From the NCBI GenBank assembly GCA_965205875.1, contig CBDBIA010000004.1, positions 2,682,830-2,746,829 on the forward strand: a DNA stretch of 64,000 bases. The letters run 5' to 3'. Below, piece after piece: positions 4,126 to 37,510 of the stretch; the stretch's first letter is position 1, and every line of letters begins with the position of its first letter. Origin of the DNA: Phototrophicaceae bacterium (GTDB taxonomy: Bacteria; Chloroflexota; Anaerolineae; Aggregatilineales; Phototrophicaceae). The position numbers were made by a program, and so were the translations under genes. The notes under the pieces were generated by a model. The model was not told where the DNA came from. It made no database searches and was given only the letters and a program-made list of their open reading frames with translations.

Positions 4126-5202
4126 TCAGTCGCGCCGCGCGAGCAGGTAGATGCGCGGGTGCAGGCCGCCCTGGAAGACCTTCACCTCCTGCTGCAGCGT
4201 CCACAGCGCGGCGCAGTCGCGCAGCACCCGTTCCATCAGCCTGATCTCGTGCGTGATGAAGATGGCGCGCGCATTCGGCGCCGCCACGCGCCCCGCCTCG
4301 GCCAGTACCTGCGGATAGAGCGTCGCGTTCGCCTCGTGCGTGCCCAGCAGCTGGCCCCAGGGCAGGTCCGCGCAGAGCACGTCGATGCTGGCGTCCGGCA
4401 GTTTCAGCTTCGTCGCGTCCATCGCGAAGAGCTGGCCAATTTCCTCCGCGCCTGAGGCCCGCAGATTGTCAGTGGCGCAGCGCAGCGCCTCCTTGCTGGT
4501 ATCGCAGCCGGCCGCGGCCTGCAGCGGCGCGCGCAGCAGCCGCTCGATGAGCAGGGTGCCGGTGCCGCACATCAGGTTGAAGAAGCGATCTTCCGGCTGC
4601 GGCCGGGTCATCTCGATCATGGCGGCGGCGATGGTGGCGTTGAGCGCGCCGGGCAGATTGCAGACGCGCCAGCGGCGCGCGGAAAGCGGCCGCGGCGTCA
4701 GGCGAAATAGCAACTCCCAACCACTGTCATGCAGGTCGGCCGCCCGGATGCGCAGCAGCAGGTCGCCCTCTTCCTCATCGTAAACCAGCCCGGACTGCGC
4801 CGCGATGGCCTCGCGCAACCGCTGCATCACGCTCGAATCGCGGCCGGCGGCGCTGATGCGAAAGCTGCGGAAGCTGTCGCTGTCGTGCAGCTTTCTCACG
4901 CGCTCGATCTGCCGCAGCAGGCGCGTGAGATGCTGATGGCCCAGCAGGCCCGCCGGTCGCGGGATGGCGAAGTGCTGCACCAGATAGATGGCGTTGCACT
5001 TGCCGACTGCGCCCAGGGCCGCCAGATCGCCGCTGTAGTGGAAGGGCAGTTCGTCGGGGCGCTCCTTGCGCAGCAAGCGCGCGTCGCCGCCGAAGCGCGA
5101 GAGCAACTCGCTGGCGGCCTCGGCCTTCAGGCCGGCGACCACCTCGGCCTCGCACAGAATGCGCTCCCGCTCGGGAGCGCTGCGTTGGCGCGTCCGCTTC
5201 AT
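4126..5202 (-). CDS. THUMP-domain class I SAM-dependent RNA methyltransferase
   Basis: Only the last 358 codons of track ORF 4126..6414 are credible; the upstream part is antisense to the next gene. Start ATG at 5202 (MKRTRQRS). SAM-binding motif FFNLMCGTGTLLIE and motif IV-like DLPWG. Confidence 0.8.
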   Translation of the reverse strand: MKRTRQRSAPERERILCEAEVVAGLKAEAASELLSRFGGDARLLRKERPDELPFHYSGDLAALGAVGKCNAIYLVQHFAIPRPAGLLGHQHLTRLLRQIERVRKLHDSDSFRSFRISAAGRDSSVMQRLREAIAAQSGLVYDEEEGDLLLRIRAADLHDSGWELLFRLTPRPLSARRWRVCNLPGALNATIAAAMIEMTRPQPEDRFFNLMCGTGTLLIERLLRAPLQAAAGCDTSKEALRCATDNLRASGAEEIGQLFAMDATKLKLPDASIDVLCADLPWGQLLGTHEANATLYPQVLAEAGRVAAPNARAIFITHEIRLMERVLRDCAALWTLQQEVKVFQGGLHPRIYLLARRD

Positions 5203-5328
5203 GAGACCGGCCCTGGCGGCGGGCCGGAATGTGGCATAGTGGGGCAGGTGGGCAAGCGCTGTCTCCTTCGCGGCTGCGGCTGCGGCTGCGCCAGTATAGC
5301 AGCATGAGGCCGCGCGGCTGACAGCCCA

Positions 5329-6369
5329 ATGTGGAGCCGCTATGCTGGTCCCATGAGCGCCAGCATGAACCATGAAAAGCGTCTGGCCCTGCTGGAGGCC
5401 GCCGCCCCGCAACTCGCCGCGGCCTTCGGCATCGAGCTGCTGCGCGTCCGTCGGCTGCCGTCCATCAGCCGGGCCGTCTTCGCGCTGGAAGAGGCGAGCG
5501 GGCCTTACGTCCTGCGCGTGCATCAGGGGCATGAGCGCGGCGACCAGCTCGACTCGCTGTTGGTATGGCTGCAGGCGCTCGCCGTGACCGGGCAGCTTTG
5601 TGTGCCGCGCCCGCTGGCCACAGCGCAGGGCGCGTTGCTGGCGCAAGTGCGCGTGGACGGGCTGCCGGGCCTGCAACGCTGCAGCCTGTTGACCTGGCTG
5701 CCGGGCGCGTCGCTTACGCCGAATGCGCTGACGCCAGGGCGGGCGCGGGCCATGGGCGATTTGTTGGCGCGACTGCATGACTTTGCCGCGCAGTGGCGGC
5801 CGCCGCCTGGCTTTGCGCGACCGAGCCTGGATGCCGCCGGGCTTTTCGGCGAGCGCTCGCCCTACGCCTCTGACGCCGGTGACGCGCTCTTCTCCAGCGA
5901 ACTGCGCCAGTTGATGGTAGCAGTGGCGCAACGAACGCATGTGTTGATGCAGCGTCTGGACGCGGCGCCGGACGCGCGCGGCCTCATCCACGCTGACTTC
6001 ATCGTCAAGAACTGCCTGTTCACGGACGCGGCGGCCTGCGCACTCGATTTCGACGATTGCGCCTGGGGTTACTTTCTCTATGACCTGGCGCCGGCCATGT
6101 TGCAGTTCAGCGCGCTGCCCGGCCATACTGACCTGGCGGAGGCCCTGTGGTCGGGCTACACAGCGCGCCGACCCCTGCCGCAAGCGCAGCGCAATAACCT
6201 GGAGACTCTGGTCGCGGCGCGCCTGGTCGCTTCCTGCCGCTGGCTGGCGGCCAACCAGCAGGTGCCGCAGGTGCGCGCGCAGACGGGAAAATTGCTGGCG
6301 CAGCGCGCCGCCACCCTGCGCGACTACCTGGACACGGGTCGGGTGCGGCGGCGCTCGGCGATGTTGTGA
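5329..6369 (+). CDS. aminoglycoside/choline-kinase-type phosphotransferase family protein
   Basis: 346-aa ORF with Brenner-type catalytic loop IHADFIVKNCLF and DFDD metal motif. Start uncertain (alternative ATGs at 5353 and 5365). Confidence 0.75.
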   Translation: MWSRYAGPMSASMNHEKRLALLEAAAPQLAAAFGIELLRVRRLPSISRAVFALEEASGPYVLRVHQGHERGDQLDSLLVWLQALAVTGQLCVPRPLATAQGALLAQVRVDGLPGLQRCSLLTWLPGASLTPNALTPGRARAMGDLLARLHDFAAQWRPPPGFARPSLDAAGLFGERSPYASDAGDALFSSELRQLMVAVAQRTHVLMQRLDAAPDARGLIHADFIVKNCLFTDAAACALDFDDCAWGYFLYDLAPAMLQFSALPGHTDLAEALWSGYTARRPLPQAQRNNLETLVAARLVASCRWLAANQQVPQVRAQTGKLLAQRAATLRDYLDTGRVRRRSAML

Positions 6370-6404
6370 GCGAGGGTCTGACAAGAGAGAGAAGGAGAGC
6401 AGGC

Positions 6405-7682
6405 ATGACTGCACTGGCCGAGCACATCCAGCACACCTGGCTTTGTGATACGCACGAGCACTTGCGGACGGAACGTGTCTACCTGGAGCAGGGGCCGGAC
6501 GTGCTCGTCGACCTCTTCGGCAACTACGTGTCCGCCGACCTGATCTCCGCCGGCGCCTCGCAGCAGGCCGTCGCGGCCCTGCTCGACAGCGGCAACGCGG
6601 ACGTCGAGCAGCGCTGGCGGGGCGTGCGCGAGGCCTGGCAGCACTGCCGTTACACGGGCTACGGCGAGGCGGTGCGCAGCGTCGCGCGTGAGGTTTACGA
6701 CATGGAAGAAATTACGCTGGCTGGCATCGAGGCGGCGGCGGAACTTAATCTGCGCTTGCGGCAGCCCGGCGAGCGGCTGCGCATCCTGCGCGAGCGCGGG
6801 CGGCTCGACCACGTGCAGACCGACGACATGCAGTGGGCCTGCGCGCCGGATGAGTCCGGCCCCGGCTTCTTCCTCTACGATCTCTCGCTCGTCGCCTTCG
6901 CCTCGGGCCGCTTCGATGCGCAGGCCCTGGCGGCGGAGACGGACATTGAAGTCCGCGATCTGGCCAGCCTCGATTCGGCCATGGCGGCGCTCTTCGCCAA
7001 GTACGGTCCGCTGGCCGTCGCTGTCAAGACTCAGCATGCCTACGAACGCACACTCCGCTGGCGCTCGCGCTCGCGCGAGGAAGTCGCGCCGGTGCTGACG
7101 AAACACCTGCGCGGCGCAGCGCTGGACGTGCCGGAGCGCAATTGTCTGGGCGACTGGTGCCTGGAGCGCGGGGCGGCGCTGGCGGCGGAGCACAATCTGC
7201 CGCTCAAGATCCATACCGGCTATTACGCTGGCAACAATCGCATGCCGGTGGATTTCATCCGCCCCGGCAATCTTTGCGCGCTGCTGGCTGCGCATCTGGA
7301 TACGCGCTTCGTGCTGATGCACAGTGGCTGGCCTTATGATGCCGAGCTGGCGGCGCTGGCCAAACACTATGCCAATGTGTGGGTGGACATGTGCTGGGCC
7401 TGGAGCATTGACCCGCACAGCAGCGCCGACTTCCTGCGGCGCATGATTCACAGCGTCCCCGTCAACAAGATTTTCCTGTTTGGTGGCGACACTGCCTGGC
7501 CCAACTGCGTCGTGGCCTATGCGCAGCAGGCCCGGCGTGGACTGACGCGCGCCCTGCAGGCCGAGATTGACGAGGGCGAACTGTGCGAGGCGCAGGCCAT
7601 GGCGCTGGCCACGCAGCTGATGCAGGGCAACCAGCAGGCCTGCTTCGACCTGACGGGCCTGCGCGCGCGCCTGGCGGGCTGA
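6405..7682 (+). CDS. amidohydrolase-family metal-dependent hydrolase
   Basis: ATG 6405 preceded by GAAGGAGAG. N-terminal HxH metal motif in WLCDTHEHL. 425 aa. Confidence 0.7.
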   Translation: MTALAEHIQHTWLCDTHEHLRTERVYLEQGPDVLVDLFGNYVSADLISAGASQQAVAALLDSGNADVEQRWRGVREAWQHCRYTGYGEAVRSVAREVYDMEEITLAGIEAAAELNLRLRQPGERLRILRERGRLDHVQTDDMQWACAPDESGPGFFLYDLSLVAFASGRFDAQALAAETDIEVRDLASLDSAMAALFAKYGPLAVAVKTQHAYERTLRWRSRSREEVAPVLTKHLRGAALDVPERNCLGDWCLERGAALAAEHNLPLKIHTGYYAGNNRMPVDFIRPGNLCALLAAHLDTRFVLMHSGWPYDAELAALAKHYANVWVDMCWAWSIDPHSSADFLRRMIHSVPVNKIFLFGGDTAWPNCVVAYAQQARRGLTRALQAEIDEGELCEAQAMALATQLMQGNQQACFDLTGLRARLAG

Positions 7683-9510: not shown

Positions 9511-10024
9511 TCCCCTGCGCATTGCGCAGCTGGCCGCCCAGGCCGACAGCATCCGCCAGCTCTGCGCGGGCGTGGCAATGGTACAGGCACGCTGGCGCCC
9601 GGACGCCGATTCCTGGTCGTTGCTGGAGGTCATCAACCACCTGGCGGATGAAGAGTGCGCGGACTTCCGCACGCGCCTGGATTACCTCCTGCATCGTCCC
9701 GGCGAGCCCTGGCCGCCCATTGACCCCGGCGCCTGGGTGCACGAGCGGCAGTACAACCAGCGCGACCTGGCAGAATCGCTGGATCGCTTCAGCGCATTGC
9801 GCGCCGACTCGCTGGACTGGTTGCGTTCGCTGGAAGCGCTGCGAGCGTCGGACCTGGACAGGTCGGAGCCGGCCCCCGGGGGCGGCCGCTTTCATGCCGG
9901 CGACATGCTGGCGGCATGGGTCGCGCACGATTTGCTGCATCTGCGCCAGCTGGTCGAGTTGCATTACGCCTGGACAGCGCAGCAATTGCAGCCCTACAGC
10001 GTGGCCTACGCCGGCGACTGGTAA
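9503..10024 (+). CDS. DinB/YfiT-like (DinB_2) four-helix-bundle protein
   Basis: ATG 9503 overlaps the lgt stop. 173 aa with His-containing helices (WSLLEVINHLADEE, AWVAHDLLHLRQL) typical of the DinB superfamily. The upstream part of track ORF 9326..10024 overlaps lgt. Confidence 0.65.
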   Translation: MPDPLRIAQLAAQADSIRQLCAGVAMVQARWRPDADSWSLLEVINHLADEECADFRTRLDYLLHRPGEPWPPIDPGAWVHERQYNQRDLAESLDRFSALRADSLDWLRSLEALRASDLDRSEPAPGGGRFHAGDMLAAWVAHDLLHLRQLVELHYAWTAQQLQPYSVAYAGDW

Positions 10025-10111
10025 TCCGGCCGCATGGTGCCCTCCTGGAATCGTACAAGAATTGCGGATTCCAACGCGGGATTAACTCCCCCGTGCCTTA
10101 ATGTTCAGGTA

Positions 10112-10127
10112 CTGTGCCATGGCACAG
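10112..10127. promoter_or_regulatory. perfect 16-nt palindrome in the lon leader
   Basis: CTGTGCCATGGCACAG reads identically on both strands. It lies 26 nt upstream of the lon ATG at 10153. Confidence 0.3.
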
Positions 10128-10152
10128 CCTTGTTGAGGACCTGGACGACAGC

Positions 10153-12627
10153 ATGAACGAACCCATCGTGGAACGCGACGATCCGGTCGAAACGACCGGG
10201 CTCGCTGAAGAAAACGGCGTCGCGGCAGCGCCGGATGACGCCGCGGAAGAAGAAGCGCTGCAGCCGCTGGAGCTGCCGGTGCTGCCCCTGCGCGGCATGG
10301 TGGTCTACCCCCAGACGGCCGTGCCGCTCACCGTGGGCCAGCCGCGCAGCATGAAGCTGGTCGACAGCGTCGTCAATGGCGACCGCGTGATTTGCCTCGT
10401 CGCCTCCAAAGACCCGGACAACGAAACGCCCGGGCCGGACGAGGTCTTCCGCGTCGGCACCCGCGCCTCCATCCATCGTATGTCGCGCTCGCCGGACGGT
10501 TCGCTGCGCCTGCTGGTGCAGGGTCTGACGCGCCTGCGCATCGATGACTTCGTGGAAGAGGATCCCTGGCTGAAGGCCTCCGTCAGCGAAATCCCGGAAG
10601 AGCAGGACGCCGACGAGCTGGAGCTGGAGGCCTTGATGCGCAACGTCGTCGACCAGTTCACGCGCATGGCCGAGCTGGTGCCCAGCATCCCCGGCGAGCT
10701 GATCTCCTCCGCGCTGAACATGGAAGACCCGCTGCAGCTGGTCTACGCCATCGCCACCTACGTACGCATCGAGCTGGACGAGGCCCAGAATTTGCTGGAG
10801 ATCGACTCGCTCGAAAGCAAGCTGCGCCACCTGATGGCCCTGCTGGGCAAGGAACTGGAGGTGCTGGAGCTGGGCCGCAAGATCCAGACCGAGGCGCAAT
10901 CCGGCATGGAGAAGGTGCAGCGCGAATACTTTCTGCGCGAACAGCTGAAGGCCATCCAGCGCGAACTGGGCGAGAGCGACGAGCAGACCGTGGAGGTGGA
11001 GGAGTTTCGCGAACGCATCATGGCGGCCGGCATGCCGGAGGAGGCGCAGAAGGAAGGCCTGCGCGAGCTGGAGCGACTCTCGCGCCTGCCGACGGCCGCT
11101 GCTGAATACGGCGTCATCCGCACCTGGCTGGATTGGCTGACGAGCCTGCCCTGGTCGCAGCGCAGCGAGGACAAGCTCGACATCGGCAACGCGCGCGCCG
11201 TGCTGGACGAGGACCACTATGGTCTGAAGGACATCAAGGAGCGCATCCTCGAATACCTGGCCGTGCGCAAGCTGCGCGCCGAACGCGCCGAAGAGCAGGA
11301 AGCGGATGAGCCGCAGGACCACATCCGCCGCGACCGCCAGGGCGCCATCCTGGCCTTCATCGGGCCGCCGGGCGTGGGCAAGACCTCGCTGGGCGCCTCG
11401 ATCGCGCGCGCCATGGGGCGCGAGTTCGTGCGCATGAGCCTCGGCGGCGTGCGCGACGAGGCGGAGATTCGCGGCTTCCGGCGCACCTACGTCGGCGCCA
11501 TGCCCGGTCGCCTCATCCAGACCCTGCGCCGCGTCGAGTCCATCAATCCGGTCATCATGATGGACGAGGTCGACAAGCTGGGGCGCGACTTTCACGGCGA
11601 CCCCGCCAGCGCGCTGCTGGAGGTGCTGGATCCGGAGCAAAATCATGAGTTTCGTGATCACTATCTGGACGTGCCGCTGGACCTGAGCGAGGTGCTCTTC
11701 ATCACCACCGCCAACGAACTGGAGCCCATCCCCGGGCCGCTGCGCGACCGCATGGAGATCATCCATCTAAGCGGCTACACCGAGCAGGAGAAGGCCGAAA
11801 TTGCGCGTCAGTATCTGGTGCCGCGCCAGATCCGTGAAAATGGCCTGCGCCGCTCCGAGATCGCCTTCGACGACGAGACCCTCTTGCAACTCATCCGCGA
11901 TTACACGCGCGAGGCCGGTGTCCGCAGCCTGGAGCGCGAAATCGGGCGCGCCGCGCGCAAGGTGGTCACGCGCATCGCGGAGGGCGAGCAGGATTGTGTA
12001 CAGATCGACGAAACGCTGCTGCGCGAACTGCTGGGCAAGCCGCGTCACGGCTGGCGCGAGGAGATCGCCGAACGCACCGACAAGCCCGGAGTCGCGACCG
12101 GCCTGGCGTGGACGCCGGTGGGCGGCGAGGTGCTCTTCGTCGAGGCGGCGCGCATGCCCGGCGGCAAGGGCTTCCAGTACACCGGCCAGCTGGGCGAGGT
12201 GATGCAGGAGAGCGCGCTCACGGCGCTGAGCTACATCCGCTCGCAGGCGGAAACGCTGGATATTGACCCGGCGCTCTTCGAGAGCAACGACATCCACCTG
12301 CACGTGCCGGCGGGCGCCGTGCGCAAGGACGGTCCCTCCGCCGGCGTGACCATGGCCGTGGCGCTGGCCTCACTGTTGACCGGACGGCCGGTTCGCAGCG
12401 AAGTGGCCATGACGGGCGAAATCACCCTGCGCGGTCAGGTGCTGCCGGTGGGCGGCATCAAGGACAAGGTGCTGGCTGCACACCGCCTCGGCGTGGCCAC
12501 CGTTATCATCCCCCACAAAAACGAGAACGACCTCGACGACCTGCCGGACGAGGTGCGCGAGTCGCTGGAGTTCGTACTCGCCGAGCGCGTCGACGATGTG
12601 CTGGCCGCGTCGCTGGTGGCAGGGTGA
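10153..12627 (+). CDS. lon: ATP-dependent protease Lon
   Basis: 824 aa from ATG 10153 (the track ORF begins at GTG 10114). LON N-domain, Walker [10 protein letters not shown], proteolytic-site block [14 protein letters not shown]. Confidence 0.95.
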
Positions 12628-30320: not shown

Positions 30321-31106
30321 TTAGTAACCCGTGCCGACGATGACGCGGCCGTCACGGCTACGCATGAAGACGTTCTCGGTCTTGCCATAGGCCGCAAACA
30401 AATGCTCCGCGGAGAGAACTTCCTGTGGCGCACCATCAGCCAGGATGGTGCGCCGCACCAGCAGGATGCGCTTGAAGTCGCGCGCGGCGCGCACCATGTC
30501 GTGCGTGGTCATCAACAATGTCAGGCCCTGATTATGCAGAAACTTGAGTGTCGCGGTGATTTCCGAGGCGGCGGCCACGTCGACGCCGCTGAAAGGTTCG
30601 TCCAGCAGCAAAATGTCGGCTTCCTGGGCGAGGGCGCGCGCGATAAAAATGCGTTGCTGCTGGCCGCCGCTGAGGGCGCTGAAGGGACGTTTGGCCAGAC
30701 TTTCGAGGTCCAGCATTTCCAGCACTTCGCTTGCGCGCCGCCGGGCCTCCTGCGGCCACCAGGGTAGCCAGCGACTGGCGCGCGTGCAGCCCATCATCAC
30801 GACTTCTTCCACAGTGACGGGGAAGTTGGGATCGATGGCGTTGCGCTGCGGCACAAGCCCGATTTGCACGTTCATGTGCTGGCAATCGTGACCGTGCACG
30901 CGGACCTCACCGGTCTCGTGGGGGACCAGCCCGGCGAGGGCCAGTAGCAAGGTGCTCTTGCCGGCGCCGTTGGGCCCGAGAATGGCGACGCTCTCCCCGG
31001 GCTGGACGATAAAGTTAATGTCAGCGATGGCGCGCGGCATCATTTGGTAGCCGGCGCAGAGCTCACAGACTTCCAGCGCCGCCGGTGAGGGCGACCCGGC
31101 GCTCAT
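30321..31106 (-). CDS. znuC: metal ABC transporter ATP-binding protein
   Basis: 261 aa. Walker A GPNGAGKST, signature LSGGQQQR, Walker B ILLLDEP. Confidence 0.8.
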   Translation of the reverse strand: MSAGSPSPAALEVCELCAGYQMMPRAIADINFIVQPGESVAILGPNGAGKSTLLLALAGLVPHETGEVRVHGHDCQHMNVQIGLVPQRNAIDPNFPVTVEEVVMMGCTRASRWLPWWPQEARRRASEVLEMLDLESLAKRPFSALSGGQQQRIFIARALAQEADILLLDEPFSGVDVAAASEITATLKFLHNQGLTLLMTTHDMVRAARDFKRILLVRRTILADGAPQEVLSAEHLFAAYGKTENVFMRSRDGRVIVGTGY

Positions 31107-32395
31107 GCTGTGTCTTCCCTCTCAAGGGAGGCCACAATGCTTGTGACGAGGTTACGCAACATCTCGAGCCAGGTGCCGGCGAGGCCCTCCGCTTCACCCA
31201 GGGACTCCAGTTGCAGGAGCACCAGTTGCGCGCCGCTTTCAGCGGCCACCTGTTGCGCTACATCGTTGCTGGACGTCGCCTCACCAAAGATGACCGGCAG
31301 GTTGTGTTCCCGCACCAGATCGATCAGGGCCGCGAGTTGCGCCACGCCCGGTTCGGCCAGGGTACTGGTGCCCGGCAGCACGCTGCCCGGCGTTTCAAAG
31401 CCAAAGCCGGCGGCAAAATAACCCAGGGTGAGGTGGTTACTGATCAGCACGCGTTGTTCCTGCGGTAGCGCTGCAACCAGCAGCAGCAGCTCCTGCTCCA
31501 GCGCGACGATATCGTCGAGGAAGGCGTCGCTGCGCGCCCCATAGGCCGTTGCGTTTGCGCTGTCGCGCGCCGCCAGGACGTCCCGCGCCAACAGGGTCCA
31601 GAGCGCGACGTTGCGCGGCAGCAGCCAGACGTGGGGGTCGCAGCCCTGCAGCGCGCTGCAATTGACGCTGTAGAGCGGGCCGGGGCCGGCCTGGCCCGGC
31701 AGGGTCAGGAAGCGCTCACCCAGCTCCACTTCGTGCTGCTCGCAAAGGCTTTCCATTGCCTCGTGGTGAGCGTCCTCCTCACCTTCGTGAACCTCGTCAA
31801 CGTGCTCGTCCTCATCGCCATGGTCGTCGTCTTCGTGCTCGCCTTCGTCGCCATGGTCGTCGTCAACGTGCTCGCCTTCGTCGCCATGATCGTCGTCTTC
31901 GTGCTCGTCCTCGTCGCCATGATCGTCATTTTCGTGCTCGTCCTCATCGCCATGGTCGTCGTCGACGTGCTCGTCCTCGTCGCCATGGTCGGCATCGGCG
32001 TGATCGTCCTCGTCGCCGTGATCGTCGTCTTCGTGCTCGTGCTCATGACCACTTGGCAGGACCGCCACGCAGTCCGAGAGCGTGAACAGCGCGTCTTCGG
32101 CTACCGTGAGCTCAATGGCGGCAAGCAGGCCTTCCTCATAGCCGGCGCCGTTGATGAAGACGAGGTCGGCATCGGCCAGGGCGCGCAGGTCGGAGGGTGC
32201 CGGGCGGTAGCTGTGGGGATCTGAACCCCTGGGAATGAGGGAAGTGACTTCAGCGTCCGCTCCGGCCACGCGCGCCAGTACGTCGGCGGCGATGCTGTGG
32301 CTGGCGACGATGCGCAGCCCTGTCTCCTGCGCGGCCAGCGAGGCCGAAAAGAGCAGTACAAGTAGAACTGCAAGTGCAATTCTGATCAGACGCAT
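31103..32395 (-). CDS. znuA: cluster A-I metal-binding lipoprotein/SBP with giant His/Asp/Glu-rich loop
   Basis: Start ATG 32395 (MRLIRIALAVLLVLLF signal peptide, AAGAGGAGAG upstream). The rest of track ORF 31103..33325 is antisense to the GT2 gene. Conserved HSYRP and DPHVWL metal ligand blocks. A ~95-aa acidic His-rich insert is typical of ZnuA. Confidence 0.8.
   Translation of the reverse strand: MRLIRIALAVLLVLLFSASLAAQETGLRIVASHSIAADVLARVAGADAEVTSLIPRGSDPHSYRPAPSDLRALADADLVFINGAGYEEGLLAAIELTVAEDALFTLSDCVAVLPSGHEHEHEDDDHGDEDDHADADHGDEDEHVDDDHGDEDEHENDDHGDEDEHEDDDHGDEGEHVDDDHGDEGEHEDDDHGDEDEHVDEVHEGEEDAHHEAMESLCEQHEVELGERFLTLPGQAGPGPLYSVNCSALQGCDPHVWLLPRNVALWTLLARDVLAARDSANATAYGARSDAFLDDIVALEQELLLLVAALPQEQRVLISNHLTLGYFAAGFGFETPGSVLPGTSTLAEPGVAQLAALIDLVREHNLPVIFGEATSSNDVAQQVAAESGAQLVLLQLESLGEAEGLAGTWLEMLRNLVTSIVASLEREDTA
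31802..32050 (-). repeat. 7.5 tandem 33-bp repeats encoding (E/V)DDDHGDE(D/G)EH units
   Basis: Plus-strand units begin at 31802, 31835, 31868, 31901, 31934, 31967 and 32000, with a partial unit at 32033. The consensus is GTGCTCGTCCTCRTCGCCATGRTCGTCGTCTTC. Confidence 0.9.
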
Positions 32396-32545
32396 GCCAT
32401 CTCTCCTCTTATCACCCTGAATTCCCGGGTAAGGCACAAGGTAGCGGGAATCAAACCGGGGTGCAAGACTGGTGCCAGGGTGCACTCCCGGTTGACGCAC
32501 CCTGCCAACGCGGTCAGAATCAGGCGCGAGCAAGCCCGGAGGGGC

Positions 32546-33268
32546 ATGAACGAGTGCGCAAGGCCCAAAACGTTGCTGGTCATCCCGGCGCTGAACGAGG
32601 CGGCCAACATTGGCCAGGTGGTCACGCGCGCGCGGCAGCAGCTGCCCGGAGTCGATCTGCTCGTCATCAACGACGGCTCCAGCGACGACACCGCCGCGGT
32701 CGCGCGCGAGGCTGGCGCCATGGTGCTGACGCTGCCCTACAACGTGGGAATTGGCGCGGCCGTGCAGACCGGCTTCGTCTACGCTGACCGGCACGGCTAC
32801 GAGATTGTGCTGCGCTGCGACGGTGACGGCCAACATGATGCCGGCGACCTGCTGCGCCTGCAGCAGGCCTTGCAGGCGGGGGACAGCGACGTCGTGACCG
32901 GCACGCGTTTCGGCGCCCACGTAAGCGCCAGGGTCGTTACCCTGGGTCGACGCCTTGGCATCCTCCTGCTCTCCCGCCTCATTTCGCTCCTCATCGGCCA
33001 GACCATCACGGACCCGACCTCCGGCCTGGCCGCCTTCAACCGCAATGCCATCCGGCTCTTCGCGCAGGAGTATCCGCACGATTACCCGGAGCCAGAGGGC
33101 ATCGTGCTGGCGCAACGCAACGGGCTGCGCCAGCAGGAGCTGCCCGTGACGATGCAGCCGCGCCGGCTGGGCCGCTCGTCCATCAGCTACCTGGACGGCG
33201 TCTACTACATGGTCAAGGTCACCCTGGCGATCCTCATCAGCCTGCTGCGGCCGCCGCGGCCGCGCTGA
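32546..33268 (+). CDS. family 2 glycosyltransferase (polyprenol-phosphate glycosyltransferase-like)
   Basis: ATG 32546 preceded by GGAGGGG. LLVIPALNEAANI ... LLVINDGSSDDT ... CDGDGQHD motifs. 240 aa. Confidence 0.8.
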   Translation: MNECARPKTLLVIPALNEAANIGQVVTRARQQLPGVDLLVINDGSSDDTAAVAREAGAMVLTLPYNVGIGAAVQTGFVYADRHGYEIVLRCDGDGQHDAGDLLRLQQALQAGDSDVVTGTRFGAHVSARVVTLGRRLGILLLSRLISLLIGQTITDPTSGLAAFNRNAIRLFAQEYPHDYPEPEGIVLAQRNGLRQQELPVTMQPRRLGRSSISYLDGVYYMVKVTLAILISLLRPPRPR

Positions 33269-33284
33269 AAGGCAAGGCCGACCC

Positions 33285-34397
33285 ATGCGCGTGCTGATGC
33301 TCTCCAAGGCCTGTCTGGTGGGCATCTATCAGCGCAAGCTGGAGGAAATTGCGCGCCTGGGTGTGGAGCTGTTGACGCTGGTGCCGCCTCTCTGGCGCGA
33401 CGCCGGCGGCGCGACGCGGCTGGAACGGCTGTATACCAGCGGCTATCGTCTCGAGACCACCGACATACGCCTCAACGGCAACTATCACCTGCATCACTAT
33501 CCGCGGCTGGGAGCGGCGTTGCGTGCATTTCGCCCCGATGTGCTGCATATCGACGAGGAGCCCTATAACCTGGCGACCTGGCAGGCGCTGTGGCTGGCGC
33601 GCCGGGCTGGTTGCCGCGCGCTCTTCTTTAGCTGGCAGAACATCCGGCGCCGCTATCCGCCGCCCTTCAGCCTCGGCGAGCGCTACGTGCTGCTCGGCGT
33701 AGACCACGCCATCGCCGGCACGGAGAGCGCCGCCGCTGTCCTGCGCGCCAAGGGCTACGGCGGGCCGCTGAGCGTCATCCCGCAGTTCGGCATCGACCCG
33801 CAGCTCTTCCGACCCCCGGATTCGCCCTTGCCGCCGCGACCCTTCACCCTGGGCTACTTTGGCCGCCTGGTGCCCGAAAAAGGGTTGGACAGCCTCTTGC
33901 AGGCGCTGGCCATGCTGGATGGCGAGAGTCGACTGCGCCTGGTTGGCGAGGGGCCACAGCGCGCTGAGCTGGTCGCGCTGGCGCAGCGCCTGGGCCTGGG
34001 CGCGCGCGTGGACTTCTGCGCGGCGCTGCCCTCGGTCGCCATGCCGGCGCAATATCATCAGATCGACGCGCTGGTCTTGCCCTCAGTGACGCGGCGCAAC
34101 TGGAAGGAACAGTTCGGGCGCGTGCTGGTGGAAGCGATGGCCAGCGCGCTGCCCGTCGTCGGCTCGGACAGCGGCGCGATTCCCGGCGTGATCGGGGACG
34201 CCGGTCTGACATTCGCTGAAGGCGACGCGGCGGCGCTGGCGGCGCAACTGACGCGGCTGCAACATGACGCGACGCTGCGGCAGGCGCTGGCGCAACGGGG
34301 CCGCGAACGCGCGCTGGCGCAGTTCACGCATGCTGGCGTGGCAGAGGCGACGGTGGCGGTCTATCGAACGCTGGCGGAGGAGCGCAAGAAGAACTGA
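33285..34397 (+). CDS. family 4 (GT-B) glycosyltransferase
   Basis: 370 aa. C-terminal EQFGRVLVEAMASALPVVGSDSGAIP, the E-x7-E-type GT4 signature. Confidence 0.8.
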   Translation: MRVLMLSKACLVGIYQRKLEEIARLGVELLTLVPPLWRDAGGATRLERLYTSGYRLETTDIRLNGNYHLHHYPRLGAALRAFRPDVLHIDEEPYNLATWQALWLARRAGCRALFFSWQNIRRRYPPPFSLGERYVLLGVDHAIAGTESAAAVLRAKGYGGPLSVIPQFGIDPQLFRPPDSPLPPRPFTLGYFGRLVPEKGLDSLLQALAMLDGESRLRLVGEGPQRAELVALAQRLGLGARVDFCAALPSVAMPAQYHQIDALVLPSVTRRNWKEQFGRVLVEAMASALPVVGSDSGAIPGVIGDAGLTFAEGDAAALAAQLTRLQHDATLRQALAQRGRERALAQFTHAGVAEATVAVYRTLAEERKKN

Positions 34398-34408: not shown

Positions 34409-35923
34409 TCAATCTGCGTCATCTGCGCCGGACAGGGCGACGCGCGCCCGCAGGGGCCAGGGCAGGGCCTGCCGCAGCCGGGCCAGCAGCGCGCGGTCGC
34501 CGGCGTCGAGGATGCGCGTCAAGCCGGCCAGGTAGAGCAGCGCGCCGATAATCATGCCGGCCAGCGTGCTCCAGAGCTGTGTTGCCAGCCCCATGCCGAG
34601 GGCCATCACGAGCGCCAGCAAGAGCAGCGGCGCGCTGCGCCTGAGCAGCGGGCGCCAGGCTGGCACGGGCGAGCTGTAGAGCAGCAGGGCCAGCGCCAGC
34701 AGCATCGAAACCAGGGAGGCGATAGCGGCGCCGTTGACGCCCATGCGCGGTAGCAGGATGGCGTTGAGCAGGACGTTCAGCAGCAGGCCGACGGCGCGCA
34801 CGACCATCATGCGGCGTTGCCGGTTGCTGGTGATCAGCGCCTGGATGTAGACGTCGGCGACCAGCCTGATCAGCGCGTACCACACCAGGATGCGCAGCAG
34901 GGCCGCCGCCGGGGCGAAGTCCGCGCCGAAGAGCGGCACGGTGATGTCTGGCGCGAAGAAGGACAGCAGCAGGGTCAGCGGCAGGCTCGCCAGCAGGGTG
35001 AACCAGGCCAGGCGACGCACGATGTTGTGCAGGGTGTCGCCGCTGTAGCGCGACATCATGGGGTAGAGCGACATCAGCACGGTCGTGCCCAGCAACTCGA
35101 TCATGCCGGTAACGATGACGAAGGCGGCGGTCAGCCAGCCAGTCTGTTGCGTGCCGAGCAGACGCGCGGTCATCAGCTTGTCGGCGTGGAGCCAGGCGAG
35201 GGAGAAGAAGCTGGTGAGCGCGAGCGGCAGGCTGCCGACCAGCAGGCTGCGCAGCAGGTCGCCGCGCATGCGGGCGGGCCGCACACCGCTGCGCAGCACC
35301 TGCGCCCACAGCATGGCGGCGCGCGCCAGGCCGGCGGCGATGGTCGCGAGGTACAGCCCCACCAGTCCGCCGCCGCTGGCCAGGGCCAGGCTGGCAAGGG
35401 CCAGCAGCAGCAGCATGTGCAGCACCGTCACCAGCGACGACGTGCGCATACGCTCCTGCGCCAGCAGGATCTCGTAACAGAGGTTGCCCCAGGTGTCGAC
35501 CAGCAGGCTGAGGGATGCCAGCGCCAGCAGGTTGCGGATTTCCAGGTCGAAACCGGCCAGCGGCGCGAGGGTGTTCAGCAGGAGCCAGGCCAGCAGCGCC
35601 AGGCCGCTGCGTAGCCACAGCGTCACGCCCAGATAGTCGCCCGCCAGGCGCGGCCGGCGCGCCACCTCGCGTATGATAATGGGGCCTGTGCCGAAGGTGC
35701 TGATCGCCGCGCCAATGGCGATGAAGGCGCCCACGGCGCCGTAAATGCCGTAGCCTGCATCGCCGAGAAAGCGCGCCAGCACCAGTTGCCACAGGAAGAG
35801 CAGGCCCTTCGAGACGACGCTGGCCAGGGTGAGGGCGCTGACATTGCGCAGCGCCCGTTGCGTTTCCGTGGCAGAGACGTGGCTGGCGTCCGTCACGCTG
35901 GCCCGTCCGCGGCTGCGCGCCAC
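34409..35923 (-). CDS. Wzx/MOP-superfamily oligosaccharide flippase
   Basis: 504 aa, ~12-14 TM, polysaccharide-biosynthesis-protein-like N-terminus (LRNVSALTLASVVSKGLLFLWQLVLARFLG). The alternate-frame ORF 34419..36188 is R/A/P-rich junk. Confidence 0.75.
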   Translation of the reverse strand: MARSRGRASVTDASHVSATETQRALRNVSALTLASVVSKGLLFLWQLVLARFLGDAGYGIYGAVGAFIAIGAAISTFGTGPIIIREVARRPRLAGDYLGVTLWLRSGLALLAWLLLNTLAPLAGFDLEIRNLLALASLSLLVDTWGNLCYEILLAQERMRTSSLVTVLHMLLLLALASLALASGGGLVGLYLATIAAGLARAAMLWAQVLRSGVRPARMRGDLLRSLLVGSLPLALTSFFSLAWLHADKLMTARLLGTQQTGWLTAAFVIVTGMIELLGTTVLMSLYPMMSRYSGDTLHNIVRRLAWFTLLASLPLTLLLSFFAPDITVPLFGADFAPAAALLRILVWYALIRLVADVYIQALITSNRQRRMMVVRAVGLLLNVLLNAILLPRMGVNGAAIASLVSMLLALALLLYSSPVPAWRPLLRRSAPLLLLALVMALGMGLATQLWSTLAGMIIGALLYLAGLTRILDAGDRALLARLRQALPWPLRARVALSGADDAD

Positions 35924-36291
35924 TCCGCGAGCACGGCGGCGGCCCCGGCATCGTCCTCCACCAGGCGCAGCAGGCGCCGGCCATCGCTGTAGCTGCCGTC
36001 AGCGCCGCCCAGCATGGCCGCCAGCGTCGGCTCCAGGCCGATGATGATGAGGCGGTTGCGCATGCGCGGGTGCAGCGCCAGACCCAGGCTGCGGATGTGG
36101 CCGAAGGCGCCGAGCGGCAGCCTGGGCGACTGGCGCAGGTCCAGCAGCAGCTCGACCGGGCCGCCTGCCGCGGGCAACTGCAGGGCAACGCGGCGCATGC
36201 CCTTGTGCAGGTCGTTCCAGTTCCAGGGCTGCGTCAGCGTCAGGCGCAGGGCGGTGGCCGCCTCGTCCTCCCAGGCGCTGCTCAGCGGCAC
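35893..36291 (-). CDS. hypothetical 132-aa protein (possibly STAS/SpoIIAA-like)
   Basis: The GTG start overlaps the NUDIX 3' end by 10 nt, and the 3' end overlaps the flippase ORF start by 31 nt. The pattern LTLTQPWNWNDL...VELLLDLRQSPRLPLGAF...NRLIIIGL suggests a small alpha/beta domain. The family is not certain. Confidence 0.5.
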   Translation of the reverse strand: MPLSSAWEDEAATALRLTLTQPWNWNDLHKGMRRVALQLPAAGGPVELLLDLRQSPRLPLGAFGHIRSLGLALHPRMRNRLIIIGLEPTLAAMLGGADGSYSDGRRLLRLVEDDAGAAAVLAEWRAAADGPA

Positions 36292-36722
36292 GGCGCCGGC
36301 TGCAGCAAGGCCGTCAGCCCCTCCGGCACCAGTGGCGTATCGCCCAGCGCCGTCGGCGCCAGCCAGCGCGCGCGGATGCGCCGCTCGCCTTCATGCGCCT
36401 GCAGGAACGGGCGTTCATAGACGCTGCGGTCGACGAACTGCGCGTCATAAATGCGCAGCAACTCGTGGCGCGGCCGGTCGCGATAGTTAAAGATGCTCTC
36501 CAGCGTGCCCAGATAGCGCAGCGCGCAAATCTCCTCGCCCAGCTCCTCGCGCAGCTCGCGCACGAGGGCCTGCGCGCCCGTTTCGCCGAAGCGGATGCCG
36601 CCGCCCAGCGGCCGGTAGAAGGTCGCGTCATTCGCGCGGTCGCGGCCCCTGGCGACCAGGATGCGGCCCTCGTGCTGGAACACGCAGAGCGCCACCGGGC
36701 GGATGCGCAGCTTGCGCGCCAT
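36282..36722 (-). CDS. NUDIX hydrolase
   Basis: ATG 36722 (MARKLRIRPVAL), 146 aa. Nudix box GGGIRFGETGAQALVRELREELGEE. The start overlaps the upstream stop (TGATG). Confidence 0.85.
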   Translation of the reverse strand: MARKLRIRPVALCVFQHEGRILVARGRDRANDATFYRPLGGGIRFGETGAQALVRELREELGEEICALRYLGTLESIFNYRDRPRHELLRIYDAQFVDRSVYERPFLQAHEGERRIRARWLAPTALGDTPLVPEGLTALLQPAPCR

Positions 36723-37510
36723 CAGCTGCCCTGCGCGCGGGCCAGCGCCCGCTCGATGCGGTTGTGCAGGTCGGTCAAACGCTCGCAGGCGTCGCTGAGT
36801 CCGGCGAGGTCCTCGCGCCGCTCGATCAGCGGGCGCGTGGGATGGCTGATGCGGTTGCGGATGCCCTGCAAATCCATCGCCTTGCGGCACTGGCTGTTGG
36901 AGCTGAAGCCCAGCAGCGCGCGCACCGCTTCGTGCTTGCGCGCGATGTCCACCATGTCGCCCAGTTCCATCATCTGCAGCAGGTCCAGCTCGACGTCGCC
37001 GCGGGCCTGGCGAATGCGATCCTCCTGCAGCCTCTGCCAGCGCGTTGCGGTGAAGAAGGGGCGATAGTCGTCATCGCCAGCCAGCACCAGACGCAGCAGC
37101 CGCGCCAGCTCCAGCTCAAAGTGCGCGACCAGCAGGTAGACGCTGGCCCGCGCCGGGATCTTGTTGAGGTCCGCCGGCGCCACCAGGCCGACGATCGCGC
37201 TGGACTGCAGCACGAGGAAGATGCGCTGCGGCTGTTGCGCGAAGAGCTTAATGAGTTCAAGCATGCGCGTGTCCGTCGCCAGCAACCAGTCCGCCGTCAG
37301 CGGCTGGGCGGCGGCGCCGGCGTCCAGCTCCGCGCGGCTGATGATGCCGCAGACGCCATTCTCGTCCAGCACCGGAATGTAGGTCAGGTTATGGGCGTGG
37401 GCCGCTGCCACGACCGCGTCGCGCGGCTCATTCGCCCGCCAGCAGGTCAGTTGCGCCAGCGGCGTGGCGATGTCCAGCACCGTGTAGCCTGGATCGTAGC
37501 GTGCCTGCAT
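36722..37510 (-). CDS. CBS-pair protein with C-terminal HEPN-like (Rx4H) helical domain
   Basis: ATG 37510 (MQARYDPGYTV), 262 aa. The rest of track ORF 36722..39124 is antisense to the GT9/cyclase genes. CBS motifs YIPVLDENGVCGIISRAEL and IFLVLQSSAIVGLVAPADL. The C-terminal all-alpha region ends in GIRNRISH (36842..36859). Confidence 0.65.
   Translation of the reverse strand: MQARYDPGYTVLDIATPLAQLTCWRANEPRDAVVAAAHAHNLTYIPVLDENGVCGIISRAELDAGAAAQPLTADWLLATDTRMLELIKLFAQQPQRIFLVLQSSAIVGLVAPADLNKIPARASVYLLVAHFELELARLLRLVLAGDDDYRPFFTATRWQRLQEDRIRQARGDVELDLLQMMELGDMVDIARKHEAVRALLGFSSNSQCRKAMDLQGIRNRISHPTRPLIERREDLAGLSDACERLTDLHNRIERALARAQGS

Follow-up and report, generated by a model that had tools for sequence, protein, structure and literature searches.

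Fusions of CBS domains with HEPN-type RNase domains are already a known kind of protein, which was predicted in 2013 and for which a validated case followed in 2025-26. In the earlier work, such fusions, some of them carrying an additional HD domain, were placed in the Swt1-like group of the Abi2/Swt1 HEPN clade (named examples of CBS(+HD)-HEPN proteins are alr3009 and the Pelobacter protein gi 118580987), and it was proposed that they respond to nucleotide ligands and thereby regulate RNA stability (Anantharaman et al. 2013, PMC3710099). The subject of this text is a predicted protein of this kind with a length of 262 amino acids (aa), which is encoded by the first of four consecutive minus-strand genes at 34409..37510 in a stretch of 64,000 nucleotides (nt), hereafter the window, from a genome of the Phototrophicaceae (Aggregatilineales, Anaerolineae). 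A reading made from the letters of this DNA (the sequence-only reading) had joined this gene with a NUDIX hydrolase gene and a gene for a 132-aa protein into one sensor-effector-eraser system, and had held that such a system had not been described; this latter view has to be given up, as CBS-HEPN proteins were predicted in 2013 (PMC3710099) and DS-11 has been validated (PMC13092281).

DS-11 (E. coli WP_000257686.1) is a one-protein anti-phage system with CBS and HEPN domains that came from DefensePredictor, and its phage defence in E. coli is lost with the CBS mutant Y157A and with the HEPN mutants R330A and H335A (PMC13092281). Y157 is an aromatic CBS residue that contacts adenine, the HEPN domain was assigned to PF18731 (Swt1-like) with an HHpred probability of 0.98 in the authors' table, and the ligand is still unknown (PMC13092281). 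In the literature searched, DS-11 is the only CBS-HEPN member that has been tested. A further comparable system is the HEPN-MNT pair (HepT/MntA), in which an Rx4H HEPN RNase toxin also is under nucleotide-based control, in that case by AMPylation. However, genes 2 and 3 of the window show no nucleotidyltransferase match, so an MNT partner is absent, and the control of gene 1 is predicted to take place in cis via its CBS pair.

The genes and features of the window to which we refer are the following:

36722..37510, minus strand: gene 1, predicted CBS-pair and HEPN protein, 262 aa (open reading frame (ORF) and translation)
37163..37483, minus strand: CBS pair of gene 1, about residues 10-116, predicted sensor of an adenosyl ligand (Foldseek CBS-pair matches)
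36725..37162, minus strand: all-helical C-terminal domain of gene 1, residues 117-262, predicted HEPN type (AlphaFold2, family profiles)
36842..36859, minus strand: Rx4H motif R218-N-R-I-S-H223, predicted RNase active site (conservation, DS-11 alignment)
36282..36722, minus strand: gene 2, predicted NUDIX hydrolase of the small MutT-like type, 146 aa (Pfam NUDIX, E 3.2e-12)
36534..36602, minus strand: Nudix box, gene 2 residues 41-63 (read from the translation)
35893..36291, minus strand: gene 3, orphan protein of 132 aa with a GTG start, likely Wzx companion (ORF, conservation)
34409..35896, minus strand: gene 4, Wzx/MOP-family flippase with revised start (Pfam Polysacc_synt, E 2.6e-20)

Gene 1 and its relationship to DS-11

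As far as can be judged from profile alignments, gene 1 is a distant and shorter relative of DS-11. When the profile of a 35-sequence family set was aligned by hhalign with the DS-11 sequence (taken from Table S8 of PMC13092281), the probability was 94.5% and the E value 7.7e-8 over 197 columns. The alignment places gene 1 residues 7-226 on DS-11 residues 122-338, thus including both the CBS and the HEPN regions, and it pairs R218 with R330 and H223 with H335, i.e. with the two HEPN residues that DS-11 needs for defence. A hidden Markov model (HMM) built from an alignment of 141 diverse relatives detects DS-11 at 52.4 bits. A further link is provided by haloarchaeal plasmids, as DS-11 matches “CBS domain-containing proteins” encoded there and gene 1 matches one such protein of a Haloplanus plasmid. 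In both proteins, a CBS pair is followed by a C-terminal, apparently Swt1-like HEPN domain in one polypeptide, and DS-11 functions without a partner gene, just as distant relatives of gene 1 are solitary, often in defence-type neighbourhoods. The differences are that DS-11 has 365 aa and was tested for phage defence, whereas gene 1 has 262 aa, is known from its sequence, and is fixed in a glycan operon in which it is coupled to the NUDIX gene, the 132-aa gene and Wzx. With the fusions described in 2013, gene 1 shares the predicted logic, in which CBS domains sense a nucleotide derivative and control a HEPN RNase, as well as an Rx4H motif with a polar residue after the arginine; the additional HD domain of some of these fusions is a difference, and this comparison was made by their description only.

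The family to which gene 1 belongs is large and divergent. Homologues of the full protein form 47 close clusters, and an exhaustive search with a profile of the C-terminal domain yielded 1455 cluster representatives (clusters at 50% identity) with E<=1e-3, of which 385 reach E<=1e-10. The members are mostly 250-280 aa long, carry the HEPN-type domain at the C-terminus and share merely about 20-30% identity with gene 1. The window adds a compact 262-aa CBS-HEPN protein from the Chloroflexota, and the minimal form with a CBS pair and a HEPN domain is the common one. PADLOC gave no match for gene 1, which is to be expected since the family was validated after that database had been built.

That the N-terminal part of gene 1 is a CBS pair, as the sequence-only reading had it, is well supported by fold comparison. 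The AlphaFold2 model of the protein, calculated with an alignment of 29 homologues, is confident (predicted local distance difference test (pLDDT) 92.7, predicted template modelling score (pTM) 0.86), and a Foldseek search with the whole model gave matches to CBS structures only (135 with E<=1e-3; the top match is CBSX2, 4gqy, E 8.7e-6). In gene 1 itself the Pfam CBS match is borderline, with 23.8 bits against a cut-off of 24, and the domain is found by Pfam in 25 of the 29 close and in 81 of the 141 wider family members. T16 and G108 show no variation within the 35-sequence set, and G108, D114, N116 and R121 are each conserved to at least 90% among the 141 relatives, with D114 lying in a GhVTPADLN motif.

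The remaining ~145 residues are all-helical in the model, in agreement with the sequence-only reading, and the domain is also predicted with confidence when modelled alone (pLDDT 91.3). HEPN domains are defined by a conserved Rx4-6H motif with N, D or H directly after the arginine, by a second conserved acidic residue upstream that is typically part of Ex3[KR], and by a motif position at which a helix ends and the loop leading into the last one begins (PMC3710099). In the family of gene 1, all of the 141 relatives share H223 and at least 90% share R218, and both are invariant in the 35-sequence set. The motif consensus is RNxVMH, and N219, the polar residue after the arginine, has a conservation of 90% or more among the close homologues. 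In the model, the motif closes helix 215-222, from which a loop leads over to the long final helix 234-261; short helices at 177-211 could be an insert of the HEPN domain. Upstream, the first long helix contains E132, which is conserved to at least 90% in the 141 sequences and invariant in the 35, albeit with a spacing that does not exactly correspond to Ex3[KR]. When the 141 members were scanned with Pfam, weak matches occurred to seven models of the HEPN clan (RiboL-PSP in 10 members, MAE_28990 in 4, Swt1 in 4, Apea in 2, and Cthe2314, Abi_2 and STY4199 in one each), while each unrelated Pfam family was matched by a single member. The RiboL-PSP, MAE_28990 and Swt1 matches, together with the assignment of the DS-11 domain to HEPN_Swt1, fit the Swt1-like subgroup that the sequence-only reading had named.

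The operon and the fate of its genes

The four genes of the window form one translationally coupled operon, and the coupling to the flippase gene is as strong as that among genes 1-3. At the junction of genes 1 and 2, TGATG at 36720..36724, the stop codon TGA and the start codon ATG share the A (1-nt overlap); genes 2 and 3 overlap by 10 nt, and the stop of gene 3 overlaps the start of gene 4 by 4 nt in an NTGA form. In the window and in ten of ten related genomes, this NTGA provides a GTG, TTG or ATG start in the flippase frame, and because it is kept in all 11 genomes, 35896 is the most probable start of the flippase; the ORF's first GTG, at 35923, would then be a wrong one. An independent gene call gave the same 4-nt overlap at two further loci of the clade (L078 and L079). 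All three overlapping junctions are kept in 11 of 11 Phototrophicaceae genomes (the window and L008-L017). The positions that the sequence-only reading gave for the TGATG junction and the Rx4H motif were exact, its 10-nt overlap of genes 2 and 3 was recovered, and the overlap of gene 3 with the flippase gene is present as well, with the length that follows from the revised start. A terminator scan of the coding strand of the operon detected no terminator-like sites, and an Rfam scan of the region matched no families. In comparisons with three relatives each, the ratio of nonsynonymous to synonymous substitution rates (dN/dS) is lowest for gene 1 (0.14-0.23), followed by gene 2 (0.22-0.38) and gene 3 (0.31-0.41); because of these values, genes 1-3 can be regarded as real coding genes under purifying selection.

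The conservation of this arrangement is confined to close relatives. By tblastn, genes 1-4 are found as a quartet with the same order and spacing in 10 of 10 genomes with a gene 1 identity of 77% or more (the value for the nearest genome locus is 96%), and homologues of genes 2, 3 and 4 are confined to L005 and L008-L017. The quartet clade comprises L005, L008-L017, L078 and L079, and its flanks are constant, with PBP, an enolase-family gene and GT9 on one side and GT4, GT2 and ZnuA on the other. The quartet is thus one vertically inherited syntenic block, and as the trio of genes 1-3 is confined to this one vertically related clade, it has to be counted as one evolutionary event only. Outside the clade, tblastn detected homologues of genes 2, 3 or 4 within ~6 kb in none of 14 genomes with a gene 1 of at most 59% identity, and no NUDIX domain was seen by Pfam among the called genes of eight loci (from the set L001-L007, L032 and L033). 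For the wider family, 37 metagenome loci from a scan with the 35-sequence profile were sampled and their genes called anew; an HMM for NUDIX, for which 120 homologues of gene 2 were used, gave no match among 126 neighbour proteins (three genes to each side, 44 loci), even at E<=10. NUDIX is also absent at four plasmid loci of DS-11 relatives. In these genomes and loci, the trio is found in one syntenic clade only, and genes 1, 2 and 3 show three different evolutionary behaviours.

In case of gene 2, the identification as NUDIX hydrolase by the sequence-only reading is confirmed by the Pfam NUDIX model PF00293 (47.1 bits, cut-off 21.1), and the box G41-x5-E47-x7-R55-E56-L-x-E59-E60-x-G62 is intact save for its last hydrophobic position, which is replaced by E63. 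The box and the family match resemble small NUDIX enzymes of the MutT/NudG type. Among solved structures, the CTP pyrophosphohydrolase 2rrk and Nudix hydrolase 1 are nearest to gene 2, and the scores against NCBIfam equivalogs are all far below their cut-offs. The family has 523 clusters at E<=1e-10, among them one member that is fused to MazG, and relatives with ~50% identity occur in Pseudomonas, cyanobacteria, Desulfonema and other Chloroflexota. In all three sampled cases, an Anaerolineaceae metagenome contig, a Pseudomonas genome and another genome contig, the homologue is solitary among unrelated genes. By these comparisons, gene 2 belongs to a widespread family of small MutT-like enzymes whose genes stand alone elsewhere. 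PADLOC assigned residues 9-98 of gene 2 to the candidate system model PDC-S07 with E 2.7e-9. We read this match as generic NUDIX similarity and did not accept membership in that system, as the E value of the Pfam NUDIX match is lower and gene 1 is without a PADLOC match.

Gene 3 belongs to a narrow family of 22 clusters, 21 of them at 64-95% identity and one (P0069) at 51%. The STAS-like fold that had been suspected for it could not be substantiated: there was no match in Pfam, NCBIfam, PADLOC or the PDB profiles, and hhalign against B. subtilis SpoIIAA gave a probability of 0.14%, which is a weak test. The most distant homologue, that with 51% identity (locus L077), lies directly upstream of a Wzx gene whose product is 60% identical to gene 4, and it is preceded by an unrelated repeat protein and not by NUDIX or gene 1. 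With this one supporting case, gene 3 is probably a lineage-specific companion of the flippase.

Upstream of gene 1, a 100-aa ORF was considered as a further operon member (L005, 5642..5944) and was dropped, as it is not conserved in the window. Two separated fragments match it in L012 and L014 (~4850..5940), and the ORF resembles a remnant of a gene that has decayed between GT9 and the operon.

Mechanism and competing explanations

On balance, and with moderate confidence, we lean towards gene 1 being a stand-alone CBS-pair/HEPN protein of the broad family of DS-11, for which neither the NUDIX hydrolase nor the 132-aa protein is a required partner. In such a mechanism, and by analogy with DS-11, the CBS pair would bind an adenine-containing ligand, and binding would control the dimerisation or activation of a metal-independent HEPN RNase with R218 and H223 in its active site. 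In most lineages, the CBS-HEPN protein would act alone as an effector in conflict or defence. Among distant relatives, the family indeed behaves like a single-gene module that changes its genomic context and is often placed beside restriction-modification, TIR, SIR2 or toxin-antitoxin genes. In the Phototrophicaceae clade, one copy has become fixed at the head of a four-gene coupled operon inside a cell-envelope glycan locus. The NUDIX and 132-aa proteins would not be required for the RNase because there is no co-occurrence beyond that clade and because DS-11 works alone. The comparison also removes a false lead, as NUDIX is not a general partner of the CBS-HEPN family.

Several observations weigh against this interpretation. 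The first group concerns the HEPN assignment, which the sequence-only reading had made and which stands with regard to the conserved Rx4H motif and the profile alignment with DS-11, but not with regard to the fold. All Pfam HEPN matches of the family are below the gathering thresholds, and gene 1 itself has none. The Foldseek search with the confident C-terminal model against PDB and BFVD, which the sequence-only reading had suggested as a check, returned nothing significant (best E 2.0); the HEPN-MNT structure 7bxo is in the list at E 8.5, which is not significant. PDB sequence-profile searches with the whole protein and with the C-terminal domain gave CBS proteins or noise only, and a Pfam scan of ten arbitrarily picked family members, aimed at the RiboL-PSP match, gave a single weak hit, which covered the N-terminal helix. 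The putative HEPN assignment is therefore based on sequence profiles and motif conservation, and fold-level support is missing because Foldseek gave no HEPN match for the domain; the all-helical domains of this clade appear to be without a close solved relative. The second group concerns the likeness to DS-11. A pairwise BLASTP comparison of the two proteins is not significant, gene 1 lacks the ~120-aa N-terminal extension of DS-11, and Y157, which is functionally required in DS-11, aligns with L42 of gene 1 (the family consensus is F). The third point is the location of gene 1, which in every clade genome seen is fixed in a fully syntenic envelope locus and not in a variable defence island. 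Defence genes are not usually placed in this way, and gene 1 may in this clade still serve defence or may have been recruited for housekeeping control of RNA; a local link to the NUDIX enzyme is also conceivable, for which the single event in this clade is the only comparative support. Finally, the enrichment of defence genes near relatives of gene 1 (see below) is qualitative and without a background set, although it agrees with the DS-11 experiment.

Which other explanations could account for the locus? The one that survives best, although we consider it rather unlikely, is a domesticated housekeeping regulator. In this case, the CBS-HEPN protein would tune RNA stability, possibly that of its own operon, to the adenylate or energy status of the cell, and the NUDIX enzyme would trim nucleotide or nucleotide-sugar pools for the glycan pathway. 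The constant setting between GT9, GT4, GT2, PBP and Wzx genes in every clade genome and the dN/dS of gene 1, which is the lowest among the three small genes, agree with such a role. NUDIX enzymes are also known from polysaccharide clusters, e.g. the GDP-mannose hydrolase WcaH/NudD in the colanic acid cluster. Moreover, ligand-regulated RNA stability is what had been proposed for CBS-HEPN proteins (Anantharaman et al., PMC3710099). However, the nearest characterised relatives of gene 2 are of the nucleoside triphosphate type (NudG/CTP pyrophosphohydrolase, MutT-like) and not sugar-nucleotide hydrolases, and the MazG fusion of one family member speaks for the same side. In addition, Rfam detected no RNA elements in the region, and distant relatives of gene 1 show no tie to glycan genes. 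Irrespective of this, gene 1 is a case of a CBS-HEPN protein that is fixed in a core envelope operon and not in a mobile defence island, and it can be used to ask whether CBS-HEPN RNases also serve housekeeping regulation.

The system proposed by the sequence-only reading is considerably less probable. Here, the CBS pair would detect a nucleotide signal, the HEPN RNase would be the effector and the NUDIX enzyme would remove the signal, with an accessory or antagonistic part for the 132-aa protein. This model would be in line with the 1-nt and 10-nt overlaps kept in 11 genomes, the purifying selection on all three genes, the PDC-S07 match of gene 2, the ADP-ribosylglycohydrolase (a hydrolase of adenine-nucleotide derivatives) encoded after one Haloplanus plasmid homologue, the TIR and SIR2 genes that adjoin two other relatives, and the fact that the DS-11 ligand is not yet known. 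By the refuting condition that the sequence-only reading had set, the model fails, as the trio is not conserved as neighbours outside one vertically related and fully syntenic clade: NUDIX is absent within ~6 kb in the 14 distant genomes, among the 126 neighbours and on the four plasmids, its family is widespread and solitary elsewhere, gene 3 keeps Wzx and not NUDIX or gene 1 at L077, the coupling extends equally to the flippase, and DS-11 defends as a single protein. A local variant, in which NUDIX and perhaps the 132-aa protein were recruited in this clade as partners of the RNase and NUDIX hydrolyses the adenine ligand that gates it, appears slightly more improbable still; if it held, the Haloplanus ADP-ribosylglycohydrolase and the TIR and SIR2 neighbours would suggest that the ligand of the whole DS-11-type family is derived from ADP-ribose or NAD.

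Least probable of all is that the C-terminal domain is no nuclease, gene 1 being a CBS-regulated protein of another function with a coincidental or structural Rx4H motif, since the lack of significant structural neighbours and of above-threshold Pfam HEPN matches, which would fit this idea, is opposed by an invariant H223 and near-invariant R218, N219 and E132 at about 20-30% identity with gene 1, by weak matches that gather on seven HEPN-clan models while unrelated families are hit by one member each, and by the alignment with the residues that DS-11 needs for defence.

Genomic neighbourhoods

Among 124 neighbours of gene 1 relatives, the commonest Pfam domains are ResIII, DEAD, Mrr_cat and Helicase_C, with Eco57I, N6_Mtase and HNH occurring twice each. 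PADLOC matches among the neighbours comprise DruE-like helicases, type IIG and type IV restriction enzymes, DrmMI, DpdF and PsyrT. Other loci have unremarkable neighbours such as glycoside hydrolases, P450 and DUF386. The individual loci with neighbours of the defence type or with small gene pairs are:

L032: ResIII helicase and two N6/N4 methylases
L033: upstream SNF2 helicase and Eco57I-type methylase of 1403 aa; downstream Mrr_N-NERD helicase and integrase
L027: upstream Eco57I-type methylase; downstream GmrSD and, at a distance of 4 kb, a second paralogue of gene 1
L043, L045 and L048: Mrr-type endonucleases; L043 also a GmrSD-like protein (by similarity to that of L027) and a DEAD/ResIII helicase of 1320 aa
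L050 (959..1870): TIR_2-domain protein directly downstream of the CBS-HEPN relative
L047 (3680..4795): SIR2_2-domain protein directly upstream of the CBS-HEPN relative
L003 and L025: VapB-PIN pair upstream (Pfam PIN in L003, similar pair of small genes in L025)
L006: two small genes, DUF6883 and DUF4926
L081 (plasmid): helicase and cytosine methylase
L080 (plasmid): NYN and PIN-like proteins

TIR_2 proteins also occur near CBS-HEPN relatives in L001/L002 and L006. TIR and SIR2 are NAD-consuming defence domains, and their position beside CBS-HEPN relatives could be due to chance within defence islands. At L027 (Ca. Flexifilum breve, JADKGC010000013.1), the two CBS-HEPN paralogues at 6001..6807 and 10014..10862 lie 4 kb apart in a restriction island, with the methylase upstream being of the Eco57I/MmeI type and the GmrSD type IV enzyme located between the two paralogues.

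On a plasmid of Haloplanus sp. HW8-1 (L038, NZ_CP098519.1, 6794..8647), the CBS-HEPN homologue is followed after 52 bp by a gene of the ADP-ribosylglycohydrolase family. This neighbour is not repeated on four other plasmids. Genes for QueC, QueE and 6-pyruvoyl-tetrahydropterin synthase (QueD) and a BREX gene are present within 7 kb.

A second, different translational coupling of a CBS-HEPN gene is seen in three genomes of a clade with 55-59% identity, in which a protein of ~612 aa, whose sole domain match is to MutS domain V, ends 4 nt inside the CBS-HEPN start (L019 4133..5971, L020 4133..5968, L021 4103..5971). At L006, a MutS_III/V protein is encoded two genes upstream of the CBS-HEPN relative.

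In the window itself, the ZnuA-like metal-binding protein beyond the glycosyltransferase genes (31103..32395, minus strand) contains a stretch of 99 aa rich in His, Asp and Glu (31751..32047), which is made up of (D/E)DDHGDEDEH-like repeats and represents a very long version of the His-rich loop of ZnuA. The 740-aa ORF at 31103..33325 corresponds to this ZnuA-like gene with a spurious upstream extension over the GT2 gene on the opposite strand.

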